Assembly (NCBI GenBank): GCA_964644135.1
Contig: CAZXWD010000057.1
Span: forward strand, 1-20,262
DNA: 20,262 bases
Direction of reading: 5' to 3'
Origin: an uncultured Bacteroidales bacterium
Lineage (GTDB): Bacteria > Bacteroidota > Bacteroidia > Bacteroidales > JAGOPY01
How positions within the stretch are numbered: the first letter of the stretch is position 1; each line of letters starts with the position of its first letter. The notes beneath the pieces are model-generated. The model was not told where the DNA came from and did not search any database. It saw nothing but the letters and a program-made list of their open reading frames with translations. This document shows, piece by piece, positions 3,571-20,262 of the stretch. Made by a program: the position numbers and the translations under genes.

Positions 3571-4038
3571 TTAAAAGTATTTATTGTATTCTATTCCGTT
3601 TGGTGGCGGGGGATCCTTGACGGCAGGCGTGTCAGCAGTTCGTAATGTTTCAAGCTCAACATGTATCCTTGCCGGTTTTGAAGTTTTTTTGCTGACCTCA
3701 GCCACTTTTTCAAGTCTTTCAGGAGTGAAAACAAAAAAGGAAATATCATTTTCTATGGCCCATTCGAGATAATCGTCATCTACAAATCCCATGATCATGA
3801 TGTGGCAGGCCTCTCTTTTAACTTCCAGGGCACGGCGGGCTTCTTCAACACTGAATACCGAGAAATGATCAACCCCACATTCCTCGATCATGGGAAGCAG
3901 ATCTTCGATCCCATGCCCATAAGCATTGGCTTTTATTACCATTGAGTATTTAACCCCCGGTCCGGCTTTCTCTTTCATAAACCGGATGTTGTTGTTCAGT
4001 GCGCTTTTGCTTAATTCTATGTATGATGTGAAAAGCAT
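3571..4038 (-). pseudogene. alr: alanine racemase N-terminal fragment (truncated after ~130 conserved residues)
   Basis: 155-aa ORF begins like a complete Alr (ALNNNIRFMKE...MVIKANAYGHG with the PLP-lysine; ...IHVELET). It then diverges into an unrelated tail and stops 2 nt before the DUF3179 start. About 200 aa of the TIM barrel and the whole C-terminal domain are missing, and no continuation exists in any frame. Confidence 0.7.
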
Positions 4039-4140
4039 GATTTTGTATTTTATCTGACTGGGGATAGGTTGGTATCGAGCTAATGTAATACCGTTTTCTC
4101 ATAAAAACTTAGATATTTCCTGATCTTTCTTTTTTAAGCA

Positions 4141-4449
4141 TTATTTCGTTATGGTGTAAAGCATAAAAAACCCAATAACTGCGAACAGGATGGCAATCCC
4201 CACTTTCATTTTGTCTTCCGGTATTGAACTCTGGATTTTAGCTCCAAGCTGCCCGCCAATGATCACGCCGGGTGCAGTAAAAATCAGCAGGTTCATTACC
4301 TTGTTATACGTTTCGGGACCTTCCTGAAAGAATGCGTAGAAATGGCCTGCCGATGCTACCAACATGGTAATTACCACCACAAAGATGGAAGTTCCCACGG
4401 CAACAGGCGGTGGTACTTTACAACGTGCTACCAAATTGTATTCATGCAT
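4141..4449 (-). pseudogene. C-terminal half of a TauE/SafE (TSUP, DUF81) family membrane transporter; N-terminal half absent
   Basis: 102-aa ORF matches the second 4-TM repeat of the TSUP family (PPVAVGTSIFVVVITMLVASAGHF...GGQLGAKI). No upstream continuation exists in any frame before the ATPase gene at 4609. Confidence 0.55.
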
Positions 4450-4608: not shown

Positions 4609-6033
4609 TTAAACAGGATTGAACAGATCATCCAGTTGCAATTCATTTTGGACCAGGCCTGTGGAATAAATGTTTTTTCGCACTCCAAAGGTTGTTATCA
4701 TCGTCAGAAATACCGATTTGCGTGTTCCTGTTTCAGATTTAAAGGTCCCGATCTTGTTTCTTAATTCGGCTGCATATTTTTTAGAGATGGTGAACGGATT
4801 TATTGAAAATTTCATTTCACATAGATTGATAACCTGGTCGCGACGGTCGATGATAAGATCGACCTGAGTACCCTGTTCAGATGTTTTGCTTCTCCAGGAG
4901 GAAACTTTAGTATGAACTCCGCTAATTCCAAGAGATTGTTTAATTTGTGAAAGGTGATACAGGCACACCTGCTCAAAAGCATATCCGGTCCATGCCCTGT
5001 AGTTCGGAGTATCAATAAAATTTAACCAACTGGTATTATCTGCGTTTTTGTTTGGTTCAACGAATTTTAAATAGAAATGAGAATAAAAGTCAACCAATTG
5101 ATACAGGCTGTTCCTGGATTTTCTGCCAAAGGGAACATATTTTCTTATGAATCCACTATCTTCCAATTCATCCAAAATTCTTGTCGTGCTGCCTGCGTTG
5201 GGCAGACCTGAAAATCTTATGAGTTCATCCCTGTTTAATCCTTTTGATCGTTTGGCAAGTGCCCTGATAAGGCTCAGATGCTTTTCGTGGTTACTGAAAA
5301 GTGAGCGGTACAGATTATCAAATTCGTTACTCAGCAAACCTGTTTCGGAGAAGCATATTTTATCGATATTTTGCATCGCACTCAGCCCGGAACCTACTTC
5401 ATCCCAATAAAAAGGAATACCACCCAATGACATGTATAATTGAACGATCTGATACCGGTCAAGTTTTATGTTTTGTAATTGCAGAAGTTTTTCACATTCA
5501 TTTAATTTGAATGGTTCAAGCCTGATCTTTTTTGTGATCCGGTTGTGCAAGCCTCCCTTGTTATTGATAAGCTTGTTCGTCATCCAGGAAGTAGCGGAAC
5601 CGCAAACGATCAATAAAATATCATTTCGGGCAGAAGCCCAGCTATTCCAGAAGTGCTCAAGTGCCTGAAGAAAACTGGAATTGCGGGTATCAAACCAGGG
5701 CAGTTCATCTATAAAGACCACTTTTCTACCCTCCTGCGTTTCCAGCAAGCTGCTTAATTGAGAAAATGCTTTAAGCCAGTCACTTGCCGGCATAAATTCA
5801 TTAGCCTGAAACTGCTTTCCCAGCGCCAGATTAAAATTGGCCAATTGTTGCTTCATGGATGCATTGGCCAATGCGGTTGCCTGAAAGGTGAAATTATTTT
5901 TAAATGCATGCCGTATCAGGAAAGTTTTCCCAACCCTTCTTCTTCCGTATATAGCAACAAATTCTGTTTTTTTTGATAGAAGGGTTTCCTGGAGGTAAGA
6001 CAACTCTTTTTCTCTTCCAACAAATAATTGCAT
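4609..6033 (-). CDS. ATP-binding protein: archaeal-type AAA ATPase (PF01637-like) with a C-terminal DUF234 nuclease-like domain
   Basis: 474-aa ORF. Has a Walker A (YGRRRVGKT) and Walker B (VVFIDE). The C-terminal DLIIDRRD...INLCEMKF stretch is the PD-(D/E)xK-like DUF234 signature common in Bacteroidota paralog families. Confidence 0.8.
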   Translation of the reverse strand: MQLFVGREKELSYLQETLLSKKTEFVAIYGRRRVGKTFLIRHAFKNNFTFQATALANASMKQQLANFNLALGKQFQANEFMPASDWLKAFSQLSSLLETQEGRKVVFIDELPWFDTRNSSFLQALEHFWNSWASARNDILLIVCGSATSWMTNKLINNKGGLHNRITKKIRLEPFKLNECEKLLQLQNIKLDRYQIVQLYMSLGGIPFYWDEVGSGLSAMQNIDKICFSETGLLSNEFDNLYRSLFSNHEKHLSLIRALAKRSKGLNRDELIRFSGLPNAGSTTRILDELEDSGFIRKYVPFGRKSRNSLYQLVDFYSHFYLKFVEPNKNADNTSWLNFIDTPNYRAWTGYAFEQVCLYHLSQIKQSLGISGVHTKVSSWRSKTSEQGTQVDLIIDRRDQVINLCEMKFSINPFTISKKYAAELRNKIGTFKSETGTRKSVFLTMITTFGVRKNIYSTGLVQNELQLDDLFNPV

Positions 6034-6251: not shown

Positions 6252-7654
6252 TCACACATGCTCAATGTCACTGAAATCAGCAACAGTCTTGCTATCAGTG
6301 ACCAAATCTGAAAGTTGCAGTTTGTGGATGTCGTCAACACCATTGCTTCGGGCGAAAACTTTCAGTTCGTTGTTAATGGCGGTGTAAAAATTCACAAATC
6401 CTTTGACAGCTTTTGAGTGCAGGACCAATTTCCGGAGTTGCTCATTCTGGGTTGTGATCCCGACCGGACAGGTACCTGTATGGCACACCCTGGCCTGAAT
6501 ACAACCAATGGAGATAAGCGATGCCGTTGCCAGTGCAATCGCATCGGCACCCAAAGCCAGTGCTTTGGCAATATCTGAACTGTCTCTGAAACCACCGGTA
6601 ACGCATAGCGTCACCTCACTGTTTACTTTATCCAGATATTTACGCGCTCTGCGAATGACAAAAACAGGAGGAATCCCGACATTATCTTTTAAAAATCCTG
6701 GAGAAGACCCGGTTGCTCCACCGCGACAATCGAAGGTAATAAAATCCGGTTCAGCTTGCAATGCAAAAGCCAGATCGTCTTCAACATGCCCGGCCGCCAG
6801 TTTGATGCCCACCGGTTTACCATCAGTAATGTTTTAATATGGCTGACCATTTTCTTCAGGTCTACCAGACTATTCACCCCCGACAGTCTTCCCGGCGAAA
6901 CAGAATCCTCTCCCGCTTTCAAACCTCTTGTTTTGGCGATTTCTTCCGTGACTTTATGAGCCGGCAAATGACCTCCCAATCCGGGTTTTACGCCTTGTCC
7001 TATCTTTATTTCCACAGCATCTGCCTGTCGGATCGCATCATCATCATGCGAAAAAGCAGCCGTTCCCAGTTCATAAATATACTTTCTGGCCGCTTTTCGT
7101 GATTCAGGCAATAAGCCGCCTTCACCCGAGCACATGGCTGTACCGACCTGCGCAGAACCTGCTGCAAGCGCTACTTTGGCTTCTTTGGACAAAGCTCCGA
7201 ACGACATGTGTGAAACGTAAAAGGGCATGCTGAGCTCAAGCGGCTGCCGGGTAGTTTTTCCGATAAGGGTTTTGGTGTTCACCTCCACATCCTCATTCAA
7301 AGGCATTTTGTGTAATTGCGCACCCTTGAAGACGATGGTGTCCAACCCGGGGAATTTTTTTAAAGTACTCATGGCAGAGTTTTCGCTCTTTCCGCTTGCA
7401 GCGAGCTTCTGCACAGCAGCAATCCTTTTATCCTTGCTAAACCCTTCATTTTCAATAGTGCCGTCATCCTCAAATTTGGTGTACCAGTGCTGTCCGTCGC
7501 AAAAGGGTTTTGATTTGGAGTTTCCACAGCGGCAAAGTGCAAAAACGGCTTTCTTTACCGGAACAAAATTTCCGGCATCATTGGTGAGGCTTTTCAGGTT
7601 TTCAACTACTAAGGGGCCGTTTTTTGAAGTGCTTATTTTAATCTTTTCTGACAT
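6252..7654 (-). pseudogene. CDGSH iron-sulfur domain + FMN-binding glutamate-synthase-family (GltS domain-2-like) protein, interrupted by a single -1/+2 frameshift
   Basis: Two overlapping ORFs (6689..7654 and 6252..6812) cover the N- and C-terminal parts of one GltS-family protein. The N-terminal part has a CDGSH zinc-finger (CRCGNSKSKPFCDGQH). The reading frame switches at a T4 run at 6832-6835 (A4 on the coding strand). One extra A would give ...MVSHIKNITDGKPVGIKLAAG..., a continuous GltS-like sequence. Confidence 0.75.
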
Positions 7655-14927: not shown

Positions 14928-15242
14928 TCCTGATCTATTAATTGACATTTTCATTGAACCACTCATAAACATTGAATTTGGCTGATTGTTCACTGACTGG
15001 CTCTTTTTCCTGATTTTTTTGGAAAAATGACAGGTGTTTTCGACCCTTAAACCGATAACATGGCTCGGGCAAGGAAACATGAATGGTTTTTGTGAGGAGA
15101 TCTTCCCGAAGTAATGAAATAATTCGTAATTAGTTGAACTACTAACATTAATTCATGAAAAACAAGATCTTATCCGTCATGTTCAACTTACACGCCATGT
15201 CAATGGTTTATTTCAGGCAGGCGGGCGACAAAATACAGGTTT

Positions 15243-15557
15243 ATGAAAAGGTATTTTTATCTGGCCATAATCCTGATCCTTGCTTTTATCCTTGTCAAAA
15301 CATTATTTCGTCAGGAGAAAGGGTCACAAATACAAAATGTTTTAGATTATGATACTTCAGGTGAGATATCCCTGATCGGCGCCTGTCAACCCTATTATCT
15401 GCTTTCGGAAAAAGGTGATACAACTGTAGCCTTCCTGCTGCTGGCCTTGGTGATAATTTTTCTTTCATCAACGACGGTAAGAAATTTTATTTCCTCAATT
15501 CCCGATAAACCCAAAAAGACAATAGGTTTTTCAGCAGGTTCTATGACAAACAACTAA
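15243..15557 (+). CDS. hypothetical small membrane protein (2 predicted TM helices)
   Basis: 104-aa ORF with two hydrophobic segments. It has no recognisable family and may be spurious. Confidence 0.3.
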   Translation: MKRYFYLAIILILAFILVKTLFRQEKGSQIQNVLDYDTSGEISLIGACQPYYLLSEKGDTTVAFLLLALVIIFLSSTTVRNFISSIPDKPKKTIGFSAGSMTNN

Positions 15558-15667
15558 AAAACAAACGTAATTGACAGCACTATGAAAGCAGCTTGCACCT
15601 GATGATCAACATATTTCTGTGGCTGCAGAAAGCTTTCTTCTAAAATTGATTGATACCAAGATAAAAA

Positions 15668-16180
15668 TCACCTCTCACGGTGTCGATGTTTAACTTTCCT
15701 TTCGGATCCGTGCATCGGGCAACCGTAAAGTTCCCGGTACAGATTGGCCAGGCGCATTGCCTGCTCCGGTGTGCATACCTGCTTTAATGCCAGGTAATGA
15801 TCGATGTTTTCCTTTTGCAGGCGTACCTGAATATCCGCTAATTCCTCCGTCAGATCATTCAGATAACTTTTGTCAGGATCCGTTACTGCAAGTTCATCCA
15901 GGATTTCCCCGCGAAGTTTTTTAATGGAATCGGCCAGCGGTCCCGAAACTTTAAGGTATTCCCCACTGATTTGGTCTACCTGACGGGTTTGTTCATCGGT
16001 AAGATCAAGCCGCGCCTGGTAGAGACACCCGGGAGTAGCCCTTTCGTCACCGCAAGTGACCACAGAGGGTTTTACAGGATAAAAAAGATAGGCGCCTAGC
16101 GCAGCAAGATTCACTACGATAAGAAAGATCAATACCCGGAAAAGTAAACGGTTTTTATGATACATTTCCATGTTGCTCAT
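15668..16180 (-). CDS. periplasmic LTXXQ-motif protein (CpxP/Spy-like heavy-metal or stress sensor)
   Basis: 170-aa ORF with one N-terminal TM/signal segment and LTDEQ / CTPEQ helical motifs. It is the third gene of a sigma / anti-sigma operon, and its start overlaps the anti-sigma stop. Confidence 0.72.
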   Translation of the reverse strand: MSNMEMYHKNRLLFRVLIFLIVVNLAALGAYLFYPVKPSVVTCGDERATPGCLYQARLDLTDEQTRQVDQISGEYLKVSGPLADSIKKLRGEILDELAVTDPDKSYLNDLTEELADIQVRLQKENIDHYLALKQVCTPEQAMRLANLYRELYGCPMHGSERKVKHRHRER

Positions 16181-16623
16181 TGTTGATCGGTTAACACATA
16201 CAGCTCCTCTGCGGTAAAGTGATTGATGAAAAGTTCCTTTTTAAGTACTTCCACAGACTGTCCGGTGGCTTCGGGCGAAGTATTTGCACCCCCTTGGGTA
16301 CCAATAAGAAAACCCAGGCCGGCGGCAAGGATAAGTGTCAGCGTGATGAAAACCGGACGCAGGAAGGGAACAGCCTGGCTGGCCGGGGGATGCTGATTTT
16401 TCTCGAGGTGCTGCAGTATCCGTGTGGTTGCAAAAGGGTTTGGCTCCCGGGCCTTTTCCTGTTCAATGGCCGACTCCAATGCCCGGTAATCCTTCAATAA
16501 ATTGGCGCAGGAAGCGCATCTCCCGGCATGTTCTTCCAGGGCAGCCGCCTTTTCTGAAGAAAGCGTCCCTTCACCGTAAGCAAATAAATTGTTTTGTACA
16601 TCCCGGCAATCCATATCAGTCAT
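16177..16623 (-). CDS. zinc-finger (ZAS-type) transmembrane anti-sigma factor
   Basis: 148-aa ORF with N-terminal CRDVQ...HAGRCASCANLL (H-x3-C-x2-C) and a central TM helix (VFITLTLILAAGLGFLI). It overlaps the sigma gene stop by 4 nt. Confidence 0.75.
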   Translation of the reverse strand: MTDMDCRDVQNNLFAYGEGTLSSEKAAALEEHAGRCASCANLLKDYRALESAIEQEKAREPNPFATTRILQHLEKNQHPPASQAVPFLRPVFITLTLILAAGLGFLIGTQGGANTSPEATGQSVEVLKKELFINHFTAEELYVLTDQQ

Positions 16624-17198
16624 TTTTTTGAATATTCGTTAAAATGTTGGGCTAGAATTTTCTGCAAATTTTTTCTGGCCCGATGCATCAGCGATTCAAC
16701 CGACGATAAACTGGTATTCATTACCTCTGCAATATCTTTATAAGAAAGCTCTTCATACTTATGCAGGATAAAAGCCGTTCTCTGGTTCATCGGCAGGGAA
16801 TCAATAGCGTTTTTCAGCAGTTTGCGGTTTTCTTCTCTGGCTAACGGATTATCCTCCGTGGCGATCCCTTCCATTTTATTTTCATCCCTGCCCGCCATTC
16901 GAATTGCGTTTTCTATTCTCAGAAAGGCCTGACGCCTTTTAATTCTCTTCAATTCATTCAACGAACGGTTAACAGTGATGCGGTAAATCCAGGTGGATAG
17001 CGATGAAGACTGACGGAATTTCCCTATCGAATTCACGATCTCCAGGAAGACATCCTGTGCCAGGTCTTCGGCATCCTCCATATTGCCAAGGAAATAATAC
17101 GCTGTTTTGATGACTTTTTTCCGGTAGCTTTCAACAAGGCTGGTGATTGCCTTGCGTTCCTTTGCAATAACTCCTTCAATCAGTTCACTTTCTGTCAT
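16620..17198 (-). CDS. RNA polymerase ECF-type sigma-70 factor
   Basis: 192-aa ORF with sigma-70 region 2 (EDLAQDVFLEIVNSIGKF...TWIYRITVNRSLNELKR) and region 4 (LPMNQRTAFILHKYEELSYKDIAEVMNTSLSSVESLMHRARKNL). Confidence 0.88.
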   Translation of the reverse strand: MTESELIEGVIAKERKAITSLVESYRKKVIKTAYYFLGNMEDAEDLAQDVFLEIVNSIGKFRQSSSLSTWIYRITVNRSLNELKRIKRRQAFLRIENAIRMAGRDENKMEGIATEDNPLAREENRKLLKNAIDSLPMNQRTAFILHKYEELSYKDIAEVMNTSLSSVESLMHRARKNLQKILAQHFNEYSKK

Positions 17199-17230
17199 CC
17201 TTTCCAGCCTGGTTACCTAGCTATTTTAAA

Positions 17231-17276
17231 GAAAAAAAGCCGGGAAATTTCGATAGTGGTCATCCCTTTCCCCGGC
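17231..17276 (-). terminator. putative intrinsic terminator after the Cys-rich protein gene
   Basis: On the minus strand, GCCGGGGAAAGGG...CGAAATTTCCCGGC forms a GC-rich stem (6 bp plus 3 A-U pairs and one bulge) followed by T7. It separates the Cys-rich gene from the sigma operon. Confidence 0.5.
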
Positions 17277-17304
17277 CATCCGCAAATTACATCAAACTTA
17301 GCGA

Positions 17305-17694
17305 TTATTTCTTATCAGGCCCGTTTTTATTGCCGCAGGGGCCAACACAACCCGGATGATTTTTAGCGCCGGTGCCTTTTAGACAATTGGTGCCCTGACC
17401 TTTGCAGCAGTTCAGGTTTCCCTTGCTGCACTTTCCATCGGTAAAGTGATCGCAAGTCCCATCTTTGTTTGCGTCCACAAACTGACAGTCTTTACTCTTG
17501 CTGATCCCCCTGATTTCGGAATGATCGCATTTTCCGTCGCCGTCTTTATCGACAAATTTTCCGATCTCCGATGAAGTTGTTTTTGCCACTTTTGCCTCAT
17601 CCTTGCTGACTTTCGCTTCAGTTTGTGCAAAACCTTGTCCTGCAAGTAACAGAGTAAAAAGGAACACTAAAATAAATCCACTTACTTTTTTCAT
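17305..17694 (-). CDS. secreted cysteine-rich, Gly/Lys/Asp-rich small protein (possible metal-binding)
   Basis: 129-aa ORF with a signal peptide (MKKVSGFILVFLFTLLLAGQGFAQ). The mature part has 9 Cys and tandem DKDGDGKCDH / ANKDGTCDH motifs followed by CCKGQGTNCLKG...PGCVGPCGNKNG. No family recognised. Confidence 0.55.
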   Translation of the reverse strand: MKKVSGFILVFLFTLLLAGQGFAQTEAKVSKDEAKVAKTTSSEIGKFVDKDGDGKCDHSEIRGISKSKDCQFVDANKDGTCDHFTDGKCSKGNLNCCKGQGTNCLKGTGAKNHPGCVGPCGNKNGPDKK

Positions 17695-17881
17695 AGGTTT
17701 TTCTTGATTATTAGTAATACATTCTACTATTTAGACAACCGGACGGAAAAAAACTTGCGGCCGTGTAATCTTCTAGATCATGCAATCTCCTGCATCGCTC
17801 AATCATCTGCCTTTGCGTTATATAAAAAAAATTACTGGATCAGAATTTATGAGATTTTTTTGTTCCACGTAAAGCAGCCCT

Positions 17882-18388
17882 CTAAGATCTTTTGTAGCTA
17901 TCAAGGGCCTTTTTCAACCTGCCGGCGATATTTCTTTTCAGCCTTTGCGGAGAAATGACCATGACCCCGTCGCCAAGCCCCAGGATCTCCTTTTCAAGTT
18001 CATAATTTAACTGCACCTCAATTTCAAATGTTATGCCCTTACTATCCTTTGCAACAACTTTCTGACTGTGGTGCAACGGTTTGGTAACGACATACTGTGC
18101 ATGCTTATGGGTTACGAAAAGCCTCACCTTATCGGGCTCCTGGTCCGGGTTTACAGTTACCCCTATCACATCCCTGAAATATTCCTCCGGATCAAAATCC
18201 TCCCTTGTAATGAACGGGATGGCGGAAGGCTGGATATCCACGATCCGGTCGAGTGCAAGGGTCAGTACCGGGTCATCCTCCGTTTTAACACCTATCAGGA
18301 ACCACCTGTTCCTGAATTCCTTTAAAAGGTAAGGATGGAAATTGAACGACCTGGGCGACCGGGCTTTGAAAGATTGATAGTTGATCAT
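17882..18388 (-). pseudogene. WYL-domain regulator fragment (WYL plus C-terminal domain; N-terminal HTH missing)
   Basis: 168-aa ORF starts inside the WYL domain (YQSFKA...FHPYLLKEFRNRWFLIG...LALDRI). An in-frame stop lies 10 codons upstream of the Met, and the adjacent frames hold no HTH. Confidence 0.55.
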
Positions 18389-18495
18389 TACAGGCTTTTG
18401 CTGAATGCAAAAAGATTACGCACCCATTGCAGATTTTTGCCGCGACGTTCTGAAAAATAGCAGAATTCATTGATTGATATTTTATTAAGGAAAGT

Positions 18496-18503
18496 TATAT
18501 TTG
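18496..18503 (+). promoter_or_regulatory. Bacteroidota-type -7 promoter box (TAtaTTTG)
   Basis: Perfect match to TAnnTTTG. A TTG lies ~20 nt upstream, and an ATG sits 6 nt downstream at 18509. Confidence 0.4.
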
Positions 18504-18508
18504 CAGCG

Positions 18509-18595
18509 ATGAAAAAAATGATCCACAAATACCGTTCACTCCTAAATGGACAAGCGCCAGTTTTTGGTGGCCGATATAAATACCGGGATGGATAG
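18509..18595 (+). other. 28-codon ORF (MKKMIHKYRSLLNGQAPVFGGRYKYRDG) within a ~150-nt candidate small transcript
   Basis: It sits between a consensus promoter box and a strong intrinsic terminator. It is too short to appear in the ORF track, and whether it is coding or part of an sRNA is unresolved. Confidence 0.25.
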
Positions 18596-18627
18596 TTGTA
18601 TCTTTTAATATTGCTTTAAGAGGTTAC

Positions 18628-18658
18628 ATCCCGGTCCGTTGGATCGGGATTTTTTTTT
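18628..18658 (+). terminator. strong rho-independent terminator (plus strand)
   Basis: AUCCCGGUCC-guu-GGAUCGGGAU is a 10-bp stem with one G-U pair, followed directly by T9. Confidence 0.75.
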
Positions 18659-19080
18659 GGGATTGCGTCAACGCAGGAGAGTTGAGCCGGTCTGTAAAAC
18701 TGGTGCAAAACGCTTAGCAGGTTCGATTCCTGCCGTACATTAGGCGTACGAAGCCAAATTGGTGAGGCAATGGACAGTTAATCCATTCCCGGACTACAAA
18801 TCCGGGACCTGAAGCTGATCACTTCTGAAAATGATCGGAGGGAACAGCCGGGAGCATGCCGGTCCTTTTCAGCTTGCTGGGAAAGACAGTCGGAAGCCGG
18901 CCGGAGCAAGGGGATACCGCCTGTGTGCAACTGCTTGCTTTCTGAAACATGAATTTTTGACCGACCGGGGCCCACGGGCTCCGTGACAGATAAAAGGAGA
19001 TGCTTGAGAAACCAACCGGAGAATCCGGGCTTAACCGCGCTTCCGCCAGCTGAAGATGGCAGGCCCCCGACGCTCCCTTT
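18659..19080 (+). ncRNA. candidate structured ncRNA of unassigned class, with a tRNA-like 5' module
   Basis: A ~420-nt stretch that is clearly GC-richer than its flanks and has no ORF of 60 aa or more on the plus strand. Positions 18668-18733 fold as a D-arm-like hairpin, an anticodon-like arm (CCGGU-CUGUAAA-ACUGG with GUA in anticodon position), a 13-nt variable region and a canonical T-arm (GCAGG-UUCGAUU-CCUGC). The flanking 7-mers (GGGAUUG / CGUACAU) cannot form an acceptor stem. Several further GC hairpins follow (e.g. GGGGCC-cacg-GGCUCC at ~18967-18982). Strand and exact ends are uncertain. Confidence 0.35.
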
Positions 19081-19143
19081 TTAAAAAGAAAATTTTGATC
19101 ATTCAAAATATATTGAGCAACAATTATTAACCAAACAAAAAGA

Positions 19144-20247
19144 GTGATGAAGAAAGTAAGAATTAACACCGGAACCGTAGGGTTAGTCTACAGGAAGGAT
19201 AACTATAAGAGGGTATTGACTGAAGGTACCTACTTCTTGTCTCCCTGCGACAAAGTTGTAAAGTACGACATGGCTATGCCCTTCGTACCTTACACAGAAT
19301 TGAACATCCTGTTGAGGGATGAAAAACTGGCAGAACTGTTGACTGTAGTGAAAGTGGCAGATAACGAGATCGCATTGAAATATGAAGACGGTATCTTCAA
19401 GGGGGTCCTGACTCCCGGAAAGTACGCCTACTTCAAGGGAGTGATCGACTACACCTTCATAAATGTCGACCTGGGCAGGATCAGGATTCCTGAGAGCATC
19501 GACAAGACCATTTTGCAGAAGGCTGCTTTGGTAAATTATATCAGGGCATATGTGGTAGAATCCTATGAAAAGGGTATCATGTTCGTCGACGGAAAGTTCG
19601 AGAGGATATTGGACCCCGGGGTCTACTACTACTTCAAGAATGCAATTCCTATTACAGTCTTGAAGGCCGATATGAGGCAGTTGCAGATGGAGGTCAGCGG
19701 ACAGGAGATCCTGACCAGGGATAAGGCAGCTTTGAGGGTCAACTTCTACGCCCAGTACAAAGTAAAGGATGTAGAAAAGGCCCTGGTAGATGCCAAAGAC
19801 TACGAAAAGCAGTTGTATATCCTGTTGCAGTTAGCTTTGAGGGAATATATCGGGATGTTCACCCTGGATGAAATGCTGGAAAAGAAGGAGTCTGTATCCG
19901 GAAGCATCCTGGCATCCATCAGGGAAGCTGCAGAGAAGATCGGGGTCGAAGTATCTGAATGCGGTATCAGGGATATCATCTTGCCCGGCGAGGTAAAGGA
20001 TATCATGAACCAGGTACTGATCGCAGAGAAAAAGGCCCAGGCAAACACTATCACGAGGAGGGAGGAAACTGCCTCTACCAGGAGCTTGCTGAACACCGCC
20101 AAATTGATGGAAGACAACGGAATGTTGTTCAAGTTGAAGGAGATGGAGTACGTTGAGAAGATCGCAGATAAGATCAACAGCATCTCTGTAGCCGGCGGCA
20201 ACCAGATAGTAGACCAGTTGAGGGATATCTTCTCCCCCGGTAAATAA
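19144..20247 (+). CDS. SPFH/band-7 (stomatin-prohibitin-flotillin-HflK/C) domain protein with a triplicated N-terminal motif
   Basis: 367-aa ORF. The C-terminal two thirds are a typical SPFH domain plus coiled-coil (EILTRDKAALRVNFYAQYKV...LALREYIGMFTLDEML...IRDIILPGEVKDIMNQVLIAEKKAQA). The N-terminal ~170 aa carry three copies of a G.Y..G(I/V).....L.PG.Y.(F/Y) motif. No TM helix is predicted. Confidence 0.85.
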   Translation: MMKKVRINTGTVGLVYRKDNYKRVLTEGTYFLSPCDKVVKYDMAMPFVPYTELNILLRDEKLAELLTVVKVADNEIALKYEDGIFKGVLTPGKYAYFKGVIDYTFINVDLGRIRIPESIDKTILQKAALVNYIRAYVVESYEKGIMFVDGKFERILDPGVYYYFKNAIPITVLKADMRQLQMEVSGQEILTRDKAALRVNFYAQYKVKDVEKALVDAKDYEKQLYILLQLALREYIGMFTLDEMLEKKESVSGSILASIREAAEKIGVEVSECGIRDIILPGEVKDIMNQVLIAEKKAQANTITRREETASTRSLLNTAKLMEDNGMLFKLKEMEYVEKIADKINSISVAGGNQIVDQLRDIFSPGK

Positions 20248-20262
20248 TCAATCAGCCCCCCG

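Follow-up and report, generated by a model that had tools for sequence, protein, structure and literature searches.

A covarying, tRNA-mimicking RNA beside SPFH and RtcB genes of Bacteroidota, and a copy apparently rearranged by T-arm recombination in an uncultured Bacteroidales bacterium

What is encoded by a gene-free block that begins like a tRNA gene and lacks a paired acceptor stem? Such a block is found at positions 18659-19080 of a DNA stretch of 20,262 nucleotides (hereafter the window) from an uncultured Bacteroidales bacterium, between the remains of a WYL-family regulator gene and a gene for an SPFH/Band-7 protein (Table 1). An earlier note, made from the sequence alone, described it as a candidate for a large structured non-coding RNA, GC-rich and free of long plus-strand reading frames, with a tRNA-Tyr-like cloverleaf at the 5' end and hairpins downstream, and the features it listed are all present in the sequence. 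The longest plus-strand ORF has 51 aa, the minus-strand ORFs have 65, 116 and 48 aa (the first two had been noted before), and the GC content is 0.525-0.56 over 18700-19099 compared to 0.38-0.43 in both flanks. The GC-rich, ORF-free, hairpin-rich stretch that follows the Tyr-like part extends to about 19082, and the limits proposed for the block coincide almost exactly with those of the chimeric RNA region described below.

Protein coding on either strand was rejected on the basis of ORF lengths, lack of codon-position bias and the situation in related loci: compared to L002, the closest relative, the minus-strand ORFs exhibit 14/17/14 substitutions at codon positions 1/2/3 together with 1-nt and 2-nt indels and are rejected as genes, and no long ORFs were found in the 700 nt 5' of the SPFH gene in about 75 loci. 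Among known RNAs, no Rfam family (including tRNA, tmRNA, RNase P, GOLLD and ROOL) reaches its gathering score in the window. ARAGORN calls neither tRNA nor tmRNA anywhere in the window, permuted forms covered, and tmRNA is also missed in a relaxed Rfam scan (E<=10). The short motifs that had been thought reminiscent of RNase P fall within two covarying helices (B and C) in the 3' domain, and cmscan of 18400-19250 at E<=10 returned no RNase P match. Relaxed matches to several small RNAs at 18628-18657 are due to the terminator alone. Folding of single sequences gives z = -3.2 and -3.5 for the two strands; as both fold equally well, the folding energy is uninformative on strand or function. In Rfam scans of related loci (ten at the gathering score, three relaxed) the notable matches were to the tRNA clan and YrlA alone.

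Table 1. Positions of the predicted and annotated elements in the window.
Feature	Positions	Strand	Details and basis
WYL-family regulator, C-terminal half	17882..18388	-	WYL + WCX, 168 aa; Pfam
Mini-ORF	18509..18595	+	28 codons (MKKMIHKYRSLLNGQAPVFGGRYKYRDG); promoter-like TAtaTTTG, Bacteroidetes type, in front
Intrinsic terminator	18628..18657	+	10-bp stem, 6 G-C pairs, 3-nt loop, T run; terminator scan
Tyr(GUA)-type tRNA-like gene of locus-specific kind, 5' three-quarters	18659..18733	+	alignment with 18 tRNA-Tyr genes
Orphan acceptor 5' strand	18659-18665	+	GGGAUUG; sequence
D-like arm	18668-18685	+	UCAA-CGCAGGAGAG-UUGA; sequence
Anticodon-like arm	18687-18703	+	CCGGU-CUGUAAA-ACUGG; GUA at 18694-18696, U33, 7-nt loop
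Variable region	18704-18716	+	13 nt; sequence
T arm	18717-18733	+	GCAGG-UUCGAUU-CCUGC; sequence
Putative recombination junction	18717..18735	+	one T arm in the window, two in L002, ~584 nt apart
YrlA-like closed-acceptor tRNA mimic	18715..18777	+	T arm, hairpin, D arm; cmscan, covariation, model R1
Acceptor-like hairpin	18734-18750	+	CGUAC-loop-GUACG; part of tRNA mimic
D-arm-like element	18753-18768	+	GCC-AAAUUGGUGA-GGC; part of tRNA mimic
Anticodon-arm-like hairpin	18770-18786	+	AUGGA-CAGUUAA-UCCAU, 7-nt loop
Anticodon-arm-like hairpin	18788-18806	+	CCCGGA-CUACAAA-UCCGGG, 7-nt loop
H-type pseudoknot	18811..18837	+	loop-complement test across 52 loci
Pseudoknot stem 1	18811-14 with 18822-25	+	GAAG with CUUC
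Pseudoknot stem 2	18815-21 with 18832-37	+	loop CUGAUCA with UGAUCG; spans A-rich linker 18826-31
3' domain	18838..19082	+	~270 nt in family; profile match, covariation
Closing helix	18838-43 with 19074-79	+	GAGGGA with UCCCUU, then U tract 19078-82
Helix A	18889-91 with 19055-57	+	covariation
Helix B	18904-11 with 19035-42	+	covariation
Conserved internal loop	18912-18 / 19031-34	+	GGAUACC opposite UUAA; family form GGAUACC/UYAA
Helix C	18919-23 with 19026-30	+	covariation
Helix D	18939-43 with 19007-11	+	UUUCU with AGAAA; full-length alifold and window fold
SPFH/Band-7 protein gene	19147..20247	+	~366-367 aa; Pfam Band_7 123 bits, residues 136-307

The identity of the block becomes apparent from a set of 80 Bacteroidota loci that encode the same SPFH/Band-7 protein. 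The usual gene order comprises a divergent WYL regulator, same-strand tRNAs, a non-coding RNA of 490-650 nt, the SPFH gene and a gene for the RtcB RNA ligase; in the fuller intact order an operator-like inverted repeat follows the WYL gene, and the RNA is preceded by a tRNA-like gene of the Tyr(GUA) type and, in some cases, by further tRNAs. At least 73 of the 80 loci have this RNA next to their SPFH gene; it is always encoded on the SPFH strand, and its end lies 40-200 nt 5' of the SPFH start. Several loci come from cultured isolates, those with the locus intact including Chryseolinea serpens DSM 24574 (L018), Chryseosolibacter histidini PWU4 (L006), Roseivirga seohaensis SW-152 (L021), Fulvivirga marina (L029) and Pseudochryseolinea flava (L030). 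RtcB is present downstream on the same strand in 51 of the 70 loci with enough sequence, including L002, while the window ends at 20262, before any RtcB position. In four loci (L016, L020, L022 and L024) the large RNA is absent, and SPFH comes directly after the operator and the Tyr-like tRNA. The RNA itself is composed of a 5' domain carrying AAGACCUGAUGAG...UUUCUGUAUAG...AUGCUGCUU, one to three tRNA mimics, anticodon-like hairpins with an H-type pseudoknot, and a 3' domain of about 270 nt. RNAalifold predicts 74 pairs in the full-length consensus, of which 51 display compensatory changes. It also draws a helix between the 5' and 3' domains (GCGGAAA/UUUCCGC), which we do not claim: its sides are nearly invariant and the re-pairing test (117/2000) is not significant.

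The first 75 nt of the block exhibit tRNA hallmarks, namely a D arm, U33 with a 7-nt anticodon loop, and a T arm of the GTTCGAnTC type, and can be aligned position for position, up to the T arm and with divergence beyond it, with 18 tRNA-Tyr genes of the locus type called by ARAGORN. Identity to the syntenic tRNA-Tyr(GUA) genes of relatives is 72-80% (E down to 7e-12), and in view of these syntenic matches the likeness to tRNA-Tyr is attributed to homology and not to chance. The fragment and the locus-type genes carry C8-G9 in place of the U8 usual in the tRNA core. The fragment has no match to RF00005 in either the gathering or the relaxed scan; the tRNA-Sec model aligns with 18667-18733 at 23.7 bits in the relaxed cmscan, with both acceptor strands deleted. 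The conclusion that this cloverleaf is not a working tRNA was sound, with the acceptor unpaired and no ARAGORN call: the 7-bp acceptor stem and the discriminator of a functional tRNA-Tyr are missing, CGUACAU after the T arm is not complementary to GGGAUUG, and CCA is absent. On the other hand, the suggestion that an acceptor-less Tyr cloverleaf might be a module of a larger RNA did not hold, as it is the remainder of a separate tRNA-like gene; in L002, L082 and many further loci this gene is undamaged and its acceptor stem pairs. L002 retains the matching 3' acceptor strand (GGGAUUG/CGGUCCC).

How the gene came to be truncated is suggested by the comparison with L002. Window positions 18407-18735 correspond to L002 4681-5011 and 18717-20262 to L002 5577-7116, with an overlap of 19 nt; the alignment contains one gap only, of 585 columns, with T arms at its edges. 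These two arms in L002 are the Tyr-like tRNA's own and T arm 2 of the large RNA, and we conclude that about 585 nt were probably removed by recombination between the two near-identical T arms. The loss comprises the 3' end of the Tyr-like gene, tRNA-Lys, tRNA-Asp, the operator-like repeat and the 5' domain of the RNA, and an independent Logan contig (L001) exhibits the identical junction. By a second deletion of about 530 nt, with the junction near 18407, the regulator gene has lost its N-terminal half (L002 4151-4680 has no counterpart in the window). The intact, L002-type state is most probably ancestral, because the 5'-domain profile matches 65 of the 80 loci, including L002 and the metagenome loci L082 and L083, whereas nhmmer (E<=10) found no 5' domain in the whole window, where the first mimic module is missing as well.

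The part retained downstream of the junction includes an embedded tRNA mimic at 18715-18777, which had escaped recognition in the earlier note. It combines a T arm, an acceptor-like hairpin closed by a loop, and a D arm. The relaxed cmscan aligns 18715-18768 with model positions 29-81 (of 114) of YrlA at 20.8 bits, and our model R1, of which the window is itself a seed member, scores 53.8 bits on 18715-18777; by our own count R1 matches of at least 48 bits occur in 73 of the 80 loci, and the window contains one such module only. In alignment A3 (43 loci) 93% of the paired cells of the mimic can pair, versus 70% after shuffling, and the covariation score is 0.683 versus 0.234, reached by 0 of 500 shuffles; here and below, several alignments are plain MAFFT alignments of divergent, phylogenetically related sequences, and counts of shuffles should not be read as probabilities. 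From the window to L002, pair 3 of the D arm changes from U-A to C-G and the closing pair of the AUGGAcunnAAAUCCAU anticodon-like hairpin, an element with a constant position across loci, from A-U to C-G.

The pseudoknot that follows is supported by variation among 52 loci with the pattern GRAG-N6-9-CTYC followed by an A run. Its loop has 42 distinct sequences in these loci. At 40 of the 52 loci the loop is followed by a perfect complement of 5 bp or more, compared to 7.4 +/- 2.6 (maximum 17) on re-pairing loops from different loci; stem 2 exhibits changes on both sides at 6/6 pairs. The 3' domain was detected by nhmmer with a profile from which the window and L002 had been left out; the match, at 18808-19096, is full length with E=6e-21. 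In alignment A2 (36 loci) its paired cells amount to 81% versus 66% in shuffled alignments, with a covariation score of 0.491 versus 0.223 (0 of 500 shuffles reach it), and 30 of the 34 pairs change on both sides. The closing helix has a mean of 8.4 bp within a locus and 6.5 bp between loci, a value reached in 0 of 2000 permutations, and helix B differs between the window and L002 by compensatory A-U/G-C and G-C/A-U changes. As a constrained fold of the 3' domain in the window placed pseudoknot stem 1 in a wrong register, it was used for local hairpins and helix D only. The features by which membership in the family is recognized in this region (the pseudoknot, the closing helix, helices A-C and the GGAUACC/UYAA loop) can all form in the window, and all tested helices in the parts that the window has kept are supported by covariation. 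The reading of the block as a large structured non-coding RNA is thus borne out for 18715-19082, which is conserved and covaries in related Bacteroidota loci, as the note had proposed to check; its alternative of a tRNA pseudogene plus gene remnant is partly right, for the 5' 75 nt and the adjoining WYL gene, and not for 18715-19082.

Among known RNAs, the closest analogue is YrlA (RF02553) of rsr-yrlBA-rtcBA operons, in which a T arm precedes a closed "AS" stem-loop and a D arm (PMC4201824); YrlA of M. smegmatis is reported to be cleaved by RNase P. The module described here shares this order and shape, with the closed stem-loop in the place of the acceptor stem, its strands enter and leave at the variable-loop/anticodon side as in YrlA (PMC4201824), and both RNAs adjoin an RtcB RNA ligase gene. 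RF02553 scores are 45.2 bits in L018, 35.3 in L014, 31.3 in L003 and 20.8 in the window, all below the gathering value of 69 bits. However, the neighbour of YrlA is a Ro/Rsr (TROVE) gene, whereas here it is an SPFH/Band-7 gene and no TROVE domain was found in the scanned window ORFs. In place of the Ro/Rsr-binding end helix of YrlA, the window and its relatives have outer stems that are unaligned or contain non-standard pairs. The YrlA motif GNCGAAN0-1G is not found in 18600-19147 of the window; its commonest form among relatives is GUCGAAGG, with 9 of 21 instances, taken by us to represent the variable-loop/T-stem junction. Besides, the family RNA is about five times longer than YrlA, contains up to three modules and real anticodon-like arms, and has a pseudoknot and separate 5' and 3' domains.

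The neighbourhood, on the other hand, recalls a prediction by Burroughs & Aravind 2016 (PMC5062991), in which, as cited elsewhere, Band-7 and RtcB are accompanied by a cognate tRNA-like RNA, "b7a-tRNA", said to bear a strong resemblance to a genuine tRNA. The same neighbourhood is found here, with SPFH in the window and RtcB in 51 of 70 relatives, and so is the same idea of a cognate tRNA-like RNA; as far as the short citing summary of b7a-tRNA goes, the Tyr(GUA)-type gene with C8-G9 is the obvious candidate for its equivalent, truncated in the window. Judged by the same summary, the RNA of 490-650 nt encoded after this gene is distinct from b7a-tRNA and far larger. No Rfam family fits this large multi-domain RNA.

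More distant parallels exist. tmRNA and circularly permuted tRNA genes also place tRNA-derived T-arm and acceptor modules in a larger RNA, and the permuted order T arm, acceptor, D arm is that of the family mimic; unlike tmRNA, the mimic is devoid of an open acceptor end, CCA and a tag reading frame, and as its acceptor is closed by a loop, aminoacylation is not expected. GOLLD and ROOL are alike in size class, in the number of helices and in adjacency to tRNA genes, but they have no Rfam match in the window or in 13 related loci, and the RNA described here has a fixed chromosomal SPFH-RtcB context and is not phage-associated. The 2016 study is said to have drawn an analogy with vaults, in which an SPFH-like protein occurs with a small structured RNA. 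Vaults (MVP with its SPFH-like shoulder, vault RNA and the TROVE-domain protein TEP1) likewise combine an SPFH-fold, cage-forming family with a structured RNA; this likeness is pure analogy, and the N-terminal 135 aa of the SPFH protein have no match.

The genes on both sides are in a different state of preservation. In the regulator remnant, the WYL profile enters at its position 18 on residue 2, and WCX follows (Pfam); the L002 orthologue has 337 aa, so that about 170 N-terminal residues are missing, presumably including the DNA-binding HTH domain. A full-length WYL regulator gene lies upstream at 34 of 67 loci. The SPFH reading frame is undamaged, with 92% amino-acid identity to L002; the nearest relatives of its product with solved structures are stomatin, QmcA and HflK, and the N-terminal extension of about 135 aa has no relative among solved structures or in NCBIfam. 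The exact sequence of the product is not on record. Elsewhere in the window, Glu_synthase is divided between two ORFs, and of Ala_racemase_N and TauE there are fragments only.

The terminator upstream ends directly 5' of the Tyr-like element and is preceded by the mini-ORF, the stretch of which is about 99% identical to L002 with a single amino-acid change. The final codons of this ORF, ACCGGGAU (18582-18589), have their complement in the 5' arm of the terminator: in the MFE fold of 18505-18662 ACCGGGAU is paired with AUCCCGGU in an antiterminator-like arrangement, while the shorter 18560-18662 yields the terminator. Lys, Tyr, His, Asn, Gln, Asp or Phe are encoded by 12 of the 28 codons, but we make no claim of tRNA-specific sensing, this content being, by a rough estimate, not clearly above that of a typical protein.

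Taking these observations together, we regard it as very probable that the block is the RNA part of an SPFH-RtcB RNA-repair locus, rearranged by a T-arm deletion; the intact RNA is a putative stable partner of the encoded proteins. Recombination between T arms would have joined the 5' three-quarters of the Tyr-like gene and a part of the RNA made up of its last tRNA mimic, its pseudoknot and its whole 3' domain. Homology, synteny, covarying structure and the deletion are read from the alignments; for function we argue by analogy with YrlA/Rsr/RtcB. By this analogy the intact RNA would be a tRNA-mimicking companion of the SPFH-RtcB module, in the role of scaffold or cofactor or, alternatively, of a decoy or sentinel directed at toxins that cleave tRNAs, and it would be made from the operon transcript with its 3' end at the closing helix and U tract (CUUUCUUUUU). 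With the 5' domain, the operator-like repeat and the N-terminal half of the regulator lost, the window copy would be at best partly functional and deregulated; since a strong terminator also lies upstream, it may never be made.

It might further be supposed that the whole stretch is debris of a decaying locus, too young to have eroded. We lean against this view, even though two independent deletions relative to L002 have removed the RNA/tRNA/operator-like part and the regulator's N-terminal half, a strong terminator lies directly 5', and further genes (Glu_synthase, Ala_racemase_N, TauE) appear broken. Every covariation-supported helix of the retained part is intact, the 3'-domain profile scores higher in the window than in L002 (67.5 vs 57.1 bits), at least four compensatory double changes distinguish the two, and the SPFH frame is preserved.

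Alternatively, the RNA could be a cis-acting 5' leader of the SPFH-rtcB operon, with the closing helix and U tract as a conditional terminator and without a stable trans-acting product; its tRNA-like parts would respond to a signal, for instance an activity that modifies or cleaves tRNAs, or a protein, and this signal would set the read-through into SPFH-rtcB. The invariable strand and the short distance to SPFH agree with this, as does the U run that follows the covarying closing helix in nearly all loci; a helix and U tract directly 5' of SPFH suit such a leader equally well, and the window and L002 possess a second, classical-looking mini-ORF with terminator and antiterminator upstream. However, at 490-650 nt and with its one to three complete tRNA mimics the RNA greatly exceeds known attenuators, the nearest analogues, YrlA and YrlB, are stable RNAs excised from an operon transcript, and the four loci that lack the large RNA indicate that it is not required for operon expression. 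We consider an exclusively cis-acting role unlikely, while a leader and a stable RNA can both hold.

That the tRNA fragment is an att-site remnant of a tRNA-targeting integrase and the remainder island cargo is highly improbable: partial tRNA copies are typical of island borders, 17810-18735 has a synteny history unlike that of its flanks, and the sigma/anti-sigma genes at 15058-17810 are missing in L002, but att remnants retain the 3' end of the tRNA and here the 5' part is retained, the missing part corresponds exactly to what an internal deletion from one T arm of the locus to another would remove, none of the more than 20 window ORFs has a domain of an integrase, transposase or recombinase, and the SPFH family has no relatives in a viral contig collection, on which ground a phage origin was likewise rejected.

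Returning to the stable-partner reading, a more specific version of it is doubtful at present, namely that in intact relatives the approximately 600-nt ornate RNA is a subunit of an SPFH-cage/RtcB repair particle and that the window represents a domain-deletion allele. If true, such a particle would be a bacterial counterpart of Ro-Y RNA or of vaults, and the closed mimics, together with anticodon-like loops that vary, would bring the ligase to broken tRNAs or act as bait for anticodon nucleases.

RtcB repair operons are widespread; Proteobacteria, too, have rtcR-SPFH-rtcB loci, such as P. aeruginosa PA14_60630. The well-delimited, covarying, tRNA-mimicking RNA described here is a candidate partner for the SPFH protein and the ligase, and a candidate for Rfam and for structural work. 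In the tRNA arrays next to the family loci, tRNAs for Tyr, Asp, Asn, His, Lys, Gln, Glu and Phe, the usual targets of anticodon nucleases, are over-represented, suggesting a connection with toxin or phage conflict. It accounts for a long gene-free gap that recurs 5' of the SPFH gene in Bacteroidota annotation, its apparent rearrangement in the window indicates that T-arm repeats are able to drive deletions in such loci, and the principle known from YrlA would be extended to a Ro-independent system.

The ORF-free, GC-rich block at 18659-19080, which an earlier note had taken for a candidate large structured non-coding RNA headed by a tRNA-Tyr-like cloverleaf without an acceptor stem, contains the cloverleaf features as described there (see table), and the CGUACAU following the T arm is indeed incompatible with GGGAUUG. 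The elevated GC content was also borne out (0.525-0.56 over 18700-19099 vs 0.38-0.43 in the flanks), and the only ORFs beyond those already reported are two short ones. Of the searches proposed in that note, ARAGORN called no tRNA or tmRNA in the whole window, and no Rfam family reached its gathering score there. A relaxed Rfam scan of 18400-19250 gave two matches that are weak but informative: to tRNA-Sec (23.7 bits, 18667-18733, with both acceptor strands deleted in the alignment) and to the Y RNA-like family YrlA (20.8 bits, 18715-18768, model positions 29-81 of 114). Folding of the single sequence was uninformative (z of -3.2 and -3.5 for the two strands).

Features of the tRNA-like element, its leader and nearby genes (window positions)
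Feature	Position	Strand	Basis
Promoter-like site TTGATA-16-TATATT, or TAtaTTTG	within 18474-18657, 5' of tRNA-like element	+	sequence
Mini-ORF, 28 codons	18509-18595	+	sequence
Terminator, strong	18628-18657	+	terminator scan
Acceptor 5' strand GGGAUUG	18659-65	+	window sequence
D-like arm	18668-85	+	window sequence
Anticodon-like arm, loop CUGUAAA	18687-18703	+	window sequence
Variable region, 13 nt	between anticodon-like arm and T arm	+	window sequence
T arm	18717-33	+	window sequence
Metal_resist protein	15668-16180		
zf-HC2 anti-sigma factor	16177-16623		
ECF sigma factor	16620-17198		
Cys-rich protein, 129 aa	17305-17694		

For comparison we used 80 loci from GTDB species genomes, each encoding a relative of the SPFH/Band-7 protein of the window. 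The best relative, L002, comes from an uncultured Bacteroidales MAG and has an SPFH protein of 92% identity. Sequence matching equates window 18407-18735 with L002 4681-5011 and window 18717-20262 with L002 5577-7116, the two blocks sharing 19 nt located exactly at the T arm, and the pairwise alignment contains a single gap of 585 columns. In L002 the Tyr-like element has pairing acceptor strands (GGGAUUG/CGGUCCC) and is followed on its 3' side by tRNA-Lys, an inverted repeat, tRNA-Asp, about 190 nt of conserved non-coding sequence and a second T arm, GCAGGUUCGAAUCCUGCC, near-identical to the first. The window arrangement is the product of recombination between these two T arms. The same junction occurs in an independent Logan contig (L001, run SRR15425351), and its origin by assembly collapse is unlikely because the shared repeat measures only 17-19 nt. 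Another deletion, with its junction near window 18407, spans about 530 nt (L002 4151-4680) and takes about 170 N-terminal residues of the WYL regulator, leaving within 17882-18407 a gene remnant whose ORF encodes a partial WYL domain and a WCX domain. The operator-like repeat of L002 (TTGCGCAATATGATTGCGTAA, 5242-5262, between tRNA-Lys and tRNA-Asp) lies inside the 585-column deletion; the window has lost both the N-terminal half of the regulator and its putative binding site.

The Tyr-like part of the window belongs to a tRNA-like family that is specific to this locus type and is marked by C8-G9 and by conservation of its D loop; the window follows this family from position 1 through the T arm and diverges thereafter. 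The Tyr genes of related loci, in which C8-G9 replaces U8, reach no more than 31-47 bits against the tRNA model of Rfam. In four loci with no called tRNA-Tyr (L005, L008, L018 and L030), another tRNA-like 3' half (…GGGAAUCCCAGUUCGAAUCUGGGUAAGGCCAC), uncalled by ARAGORN, lies about 60-100 nt 5' of the 5' domain described below, and may be a further divergent tRNA-like partner.

Conservation between loci is maximal 375-600 nt 5' of the SPFH start. Elements occur in a fixed order: a 5' domain, YrlA-like modules, anticodon-arm-like hairpins, a pseudoknot and a 3' domain. The 5' domain comprises AAGACCUGAUGAG, a hairpin with the loop UUUCUGUAUAG, and AUGCUGCUU; a profile built from nine loci detects it in 65 of the 80, at -480 to -1085 from the SPFH start (mostly -500 to -800), and has no match anywhere in the window at E<=10. 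Behind it stand one to three modules. In each of them a T arm and a closed hairpin (5-7 bp) are separated by two nucleotides from a D arm, and RNAalifold on 43 loci predicted exactly these three helices. In that alignment 93% of cells pair vs 70% in shuffles, the acceptor-like hairpin varies at all six pairs, and the covariation score of 0.683 (vs 0.234; slid controls 0.09-0.22) was reached in 0/500 shuffles, although such counts, here and below, overstate significance because the aligned sequences are related, which the slid-partner and re-pairing controls address in part. A covariance model of the module gave at least one match of >=48 bits, usually two, in 73 of 80 loci (tallied manually from the table, and taking in the 42 loci used for model building), all of them between -700 and -330; the window, also used for building, has one module (18715-18777). 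Junctions of ordinary adjacent tRNA genes scored 20-45 bits on this model. The reading of the modules as ordinary tandem tRNAs fails in L013 and L021, where the strands, read manually, pair solely as local hairpins. Next in order come one or two anticodon-arm-like hairpins with 7-nt loops, often AUGGA-CUNNAAA-UCCAU.

The pseudoknot (window 18811-18837) is of H type, with the order GAAG, loop, CUUC, A-rich linker and loop complement. A perfect loop complement of at least 5 bp was found in 40 of the 52 loci carrying the sequence frame, compared with 7.4 +/- 2.6 (maximum 17) when loops were re-paired between loci, and the loops comprise 42 different sequences. For the 3' domain, about 270 nt long, 36 loci were aligned with MAFFT, unfitted, and RNAalifold placed in it three long-range helices; these surround an internal loop, GGAUACCG/GCUYAAY, that is conserved. 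To these we added the pseudoknot and a closing helix, in which a GAAAG segment 3' of the pseudoknot pairs with CUUUC just 5' of the terminal U run (mean 8.4 bp within loci vs 6.5 bp between loci, reached in 0/2000 permutations). In the combined structure 81% of cells pair vs 66% when shuffled, 30 of 34 pairs change on both sides, and the covariation score is 0.491 vs 0.223 (0/500 shuffles). On a profile built without the window or L002, window 18808-19096 is a full-length match to the 3' domain (E=6e-21, 67.5 bits) and L002 scores 57.1 bits; the window sequence allows every covariation-supported helix of the retained part. Comparison of the window with L002 shows compensatory double changes: in helix B (18904-11/19035-42) from A-U to G-C and from G-C to A-U, in D-arm pair 3 from U-A to C-G, and in the closing pair of the anticodon-like hairpin from A-U to C-G. 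Selection has therefore acted on the structure, in one lineage or both, since the window and L002 diverged. Element length ranges from 491 to 653 nt in 26 loci. For 16 elements of 513-641 nt, the consensus over the full length predicts 74 pairs, and compensatory changes occur in 51. Two metagenome contigs retrieved with the pseudoknot sequence of the window (L082 and L083) carry the entire arrangement in compact form: operator-like repeat, hairpin, intact Tyr-like tRNA, 5' domain, two modules, pseudoknot, 3' domain and SPFH gene.

The RNA ligase gene rtcB directly follows the SPFH gene on the same strand in 51 of the 70 loci with enough downstream sequence, L002 included (the L018 protein gives 272 bits in Pfam); the window ends 15 nt past the SPFH stop codon, and there the linkage is known from relatives. 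Upstream, a divergent WYL-WCX regulator, with or without a PhyH domain, was found in 34 of 67 loci, and nearly all loci are free of long ORFs within 700 nt of the SPFH start. An inverted repeat, CTRCGCAAAAAGAYTGCGYAG, a likely operator of this regulator, stands just 5' of the first RNA gene of the operon in 33/80 loci (e.g. L003 -806, L014 -857, L016 -168), and has no match in the 2.5 kb upstream of the window SPFH gene. L016, L020, L022 and L024 have this repeat, then a tRNA-Tyr-like gene alone and the SPFH gene, with no large RNA. In ten loci (L013, L021, L023, L040, L041, L044, L057, L060, L067 and L076) the stretch that separates the large RNA from the SPFH start codon contains a second conserved near-palindrome, AATTATTGGCCAATAGTGATA, 50-200 nt 5' of the SPFH start. 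A role as another operator or as part of a promoter is conceivable for it, and the window has only AATTATTAACCAAAC at the corresponding place. Same-strand tRNA genes lie upstream in about 45 of the 80 loci, 114 in all (19 Tyr, 14 Gln, 13 Asp, 12 Lys, 12 Phe, 9 Asn, 5 Glu and 5 His among them). These arrays (L002-L081, up to 2.6 kb upstream of SPFH) are variable, and the eight specificities named, which are the usual targets of anticodon nucleases, account for 89/114.

Immediately 5' of the window tRNA-like element, 18474-18657 looks like a translation-coupled attenuator ahead of the RNA genes: the final codons of the mini-ORF, ACCGGGAU, are complementary to the 5' arm of the terminator, and this antiterminator pairing is the minimum-free-energy fold of the whole leader. 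The leader is about 99% identical between the window and L002, the RNA 3' domain only 83%. Several genes in 3571-4449 and 6252-7654 look broken, owing either to gene decay in the organism or to assembly frameshift errors: two overlapping ORFs (6252-6812 and 6689-7654) divide a glutamate-synthase-like sequence between them, Ala_racemase_N is represented by its N-terminal part alone, in a 155-aa ORF, and TauE by its C-terminal end alone, in a 102-aa ORF. The 15058-17810 block, which holds the last four genes of the table, separates the WYL remnant from genes that adjoin it in L002; either the window has gained it or L002 has lost it.

In YrlA, which is bound by Rsr and encoded alongside RtcB, the T arm, closed "AS" stem-loop and D arm constitute tRNA mimicry, and RNase P cleaves the M. 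smegmatis form, whose stem has 7 bp (PMC4201824; bioRxiv 10.1101/312249). The modules of the large RNA share this design, whereas the window element falls outside YrlA on score, Ro-binding helix and rsr linkage. The rtc locus of P. aeruginosa also contains an SPFH gene (PMC13086221); SPFH proteins assemble into large cages, and the closest solved relatives of the present one are stomatin, QmcA and HflK/C. According to the summary in bioRxiv 10.1101/312249, a cognate tRNA-like RNA (b7a-tRNA) for Band-7/SPFH next to RtcB was published in 2016, and its authors noted that YrlA sometimes adjoins Band-7. The Tyr-like tRNA of the present loci is probably b7a-tRNA. The 490-650-nt architecture of 5' domain, pseudoknot and 3' domain has no counterpart in Rfam 15 or in the searchable literature, a scope outside which the 2016 original falls. 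Hence the Band-7-RtcB idea is already known, and the multi-domain architecture appears to be new, subject to that original.

The window copy has lost the tRNA 3' end, the 5' domain, the operator-like repeat and the N-terminal half of the regulator, and its remnant sits directly 3' of a strong terminator. If expressed at all, it would be transcribed either from its own promoter or by read-through of transcription begun at that of the mini-ORF, outside WYL control. That the remnant is functionally dead is a substantial possibility, though less likely than not. As a family, the large RNA is conserved, structured, non-coding and physically tied to SPFH-RtcB, with a core that repeats the YrlA design. 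The operon transcript would be the source of the intact RNA; processing of the upstream tRNA would define the 5' end, and the closing helix with the U tract the 3' end. The RNA would work together with the SPFH protein and RtcB. Through a surface shaped like tRNA it may recruit the ligase or organise it, or it may serve as bait for tRNA-cleaving toxins, an option with which the variability of the anticodon-like loops and the composition of the tRNA arrays are compatible, without proving it.
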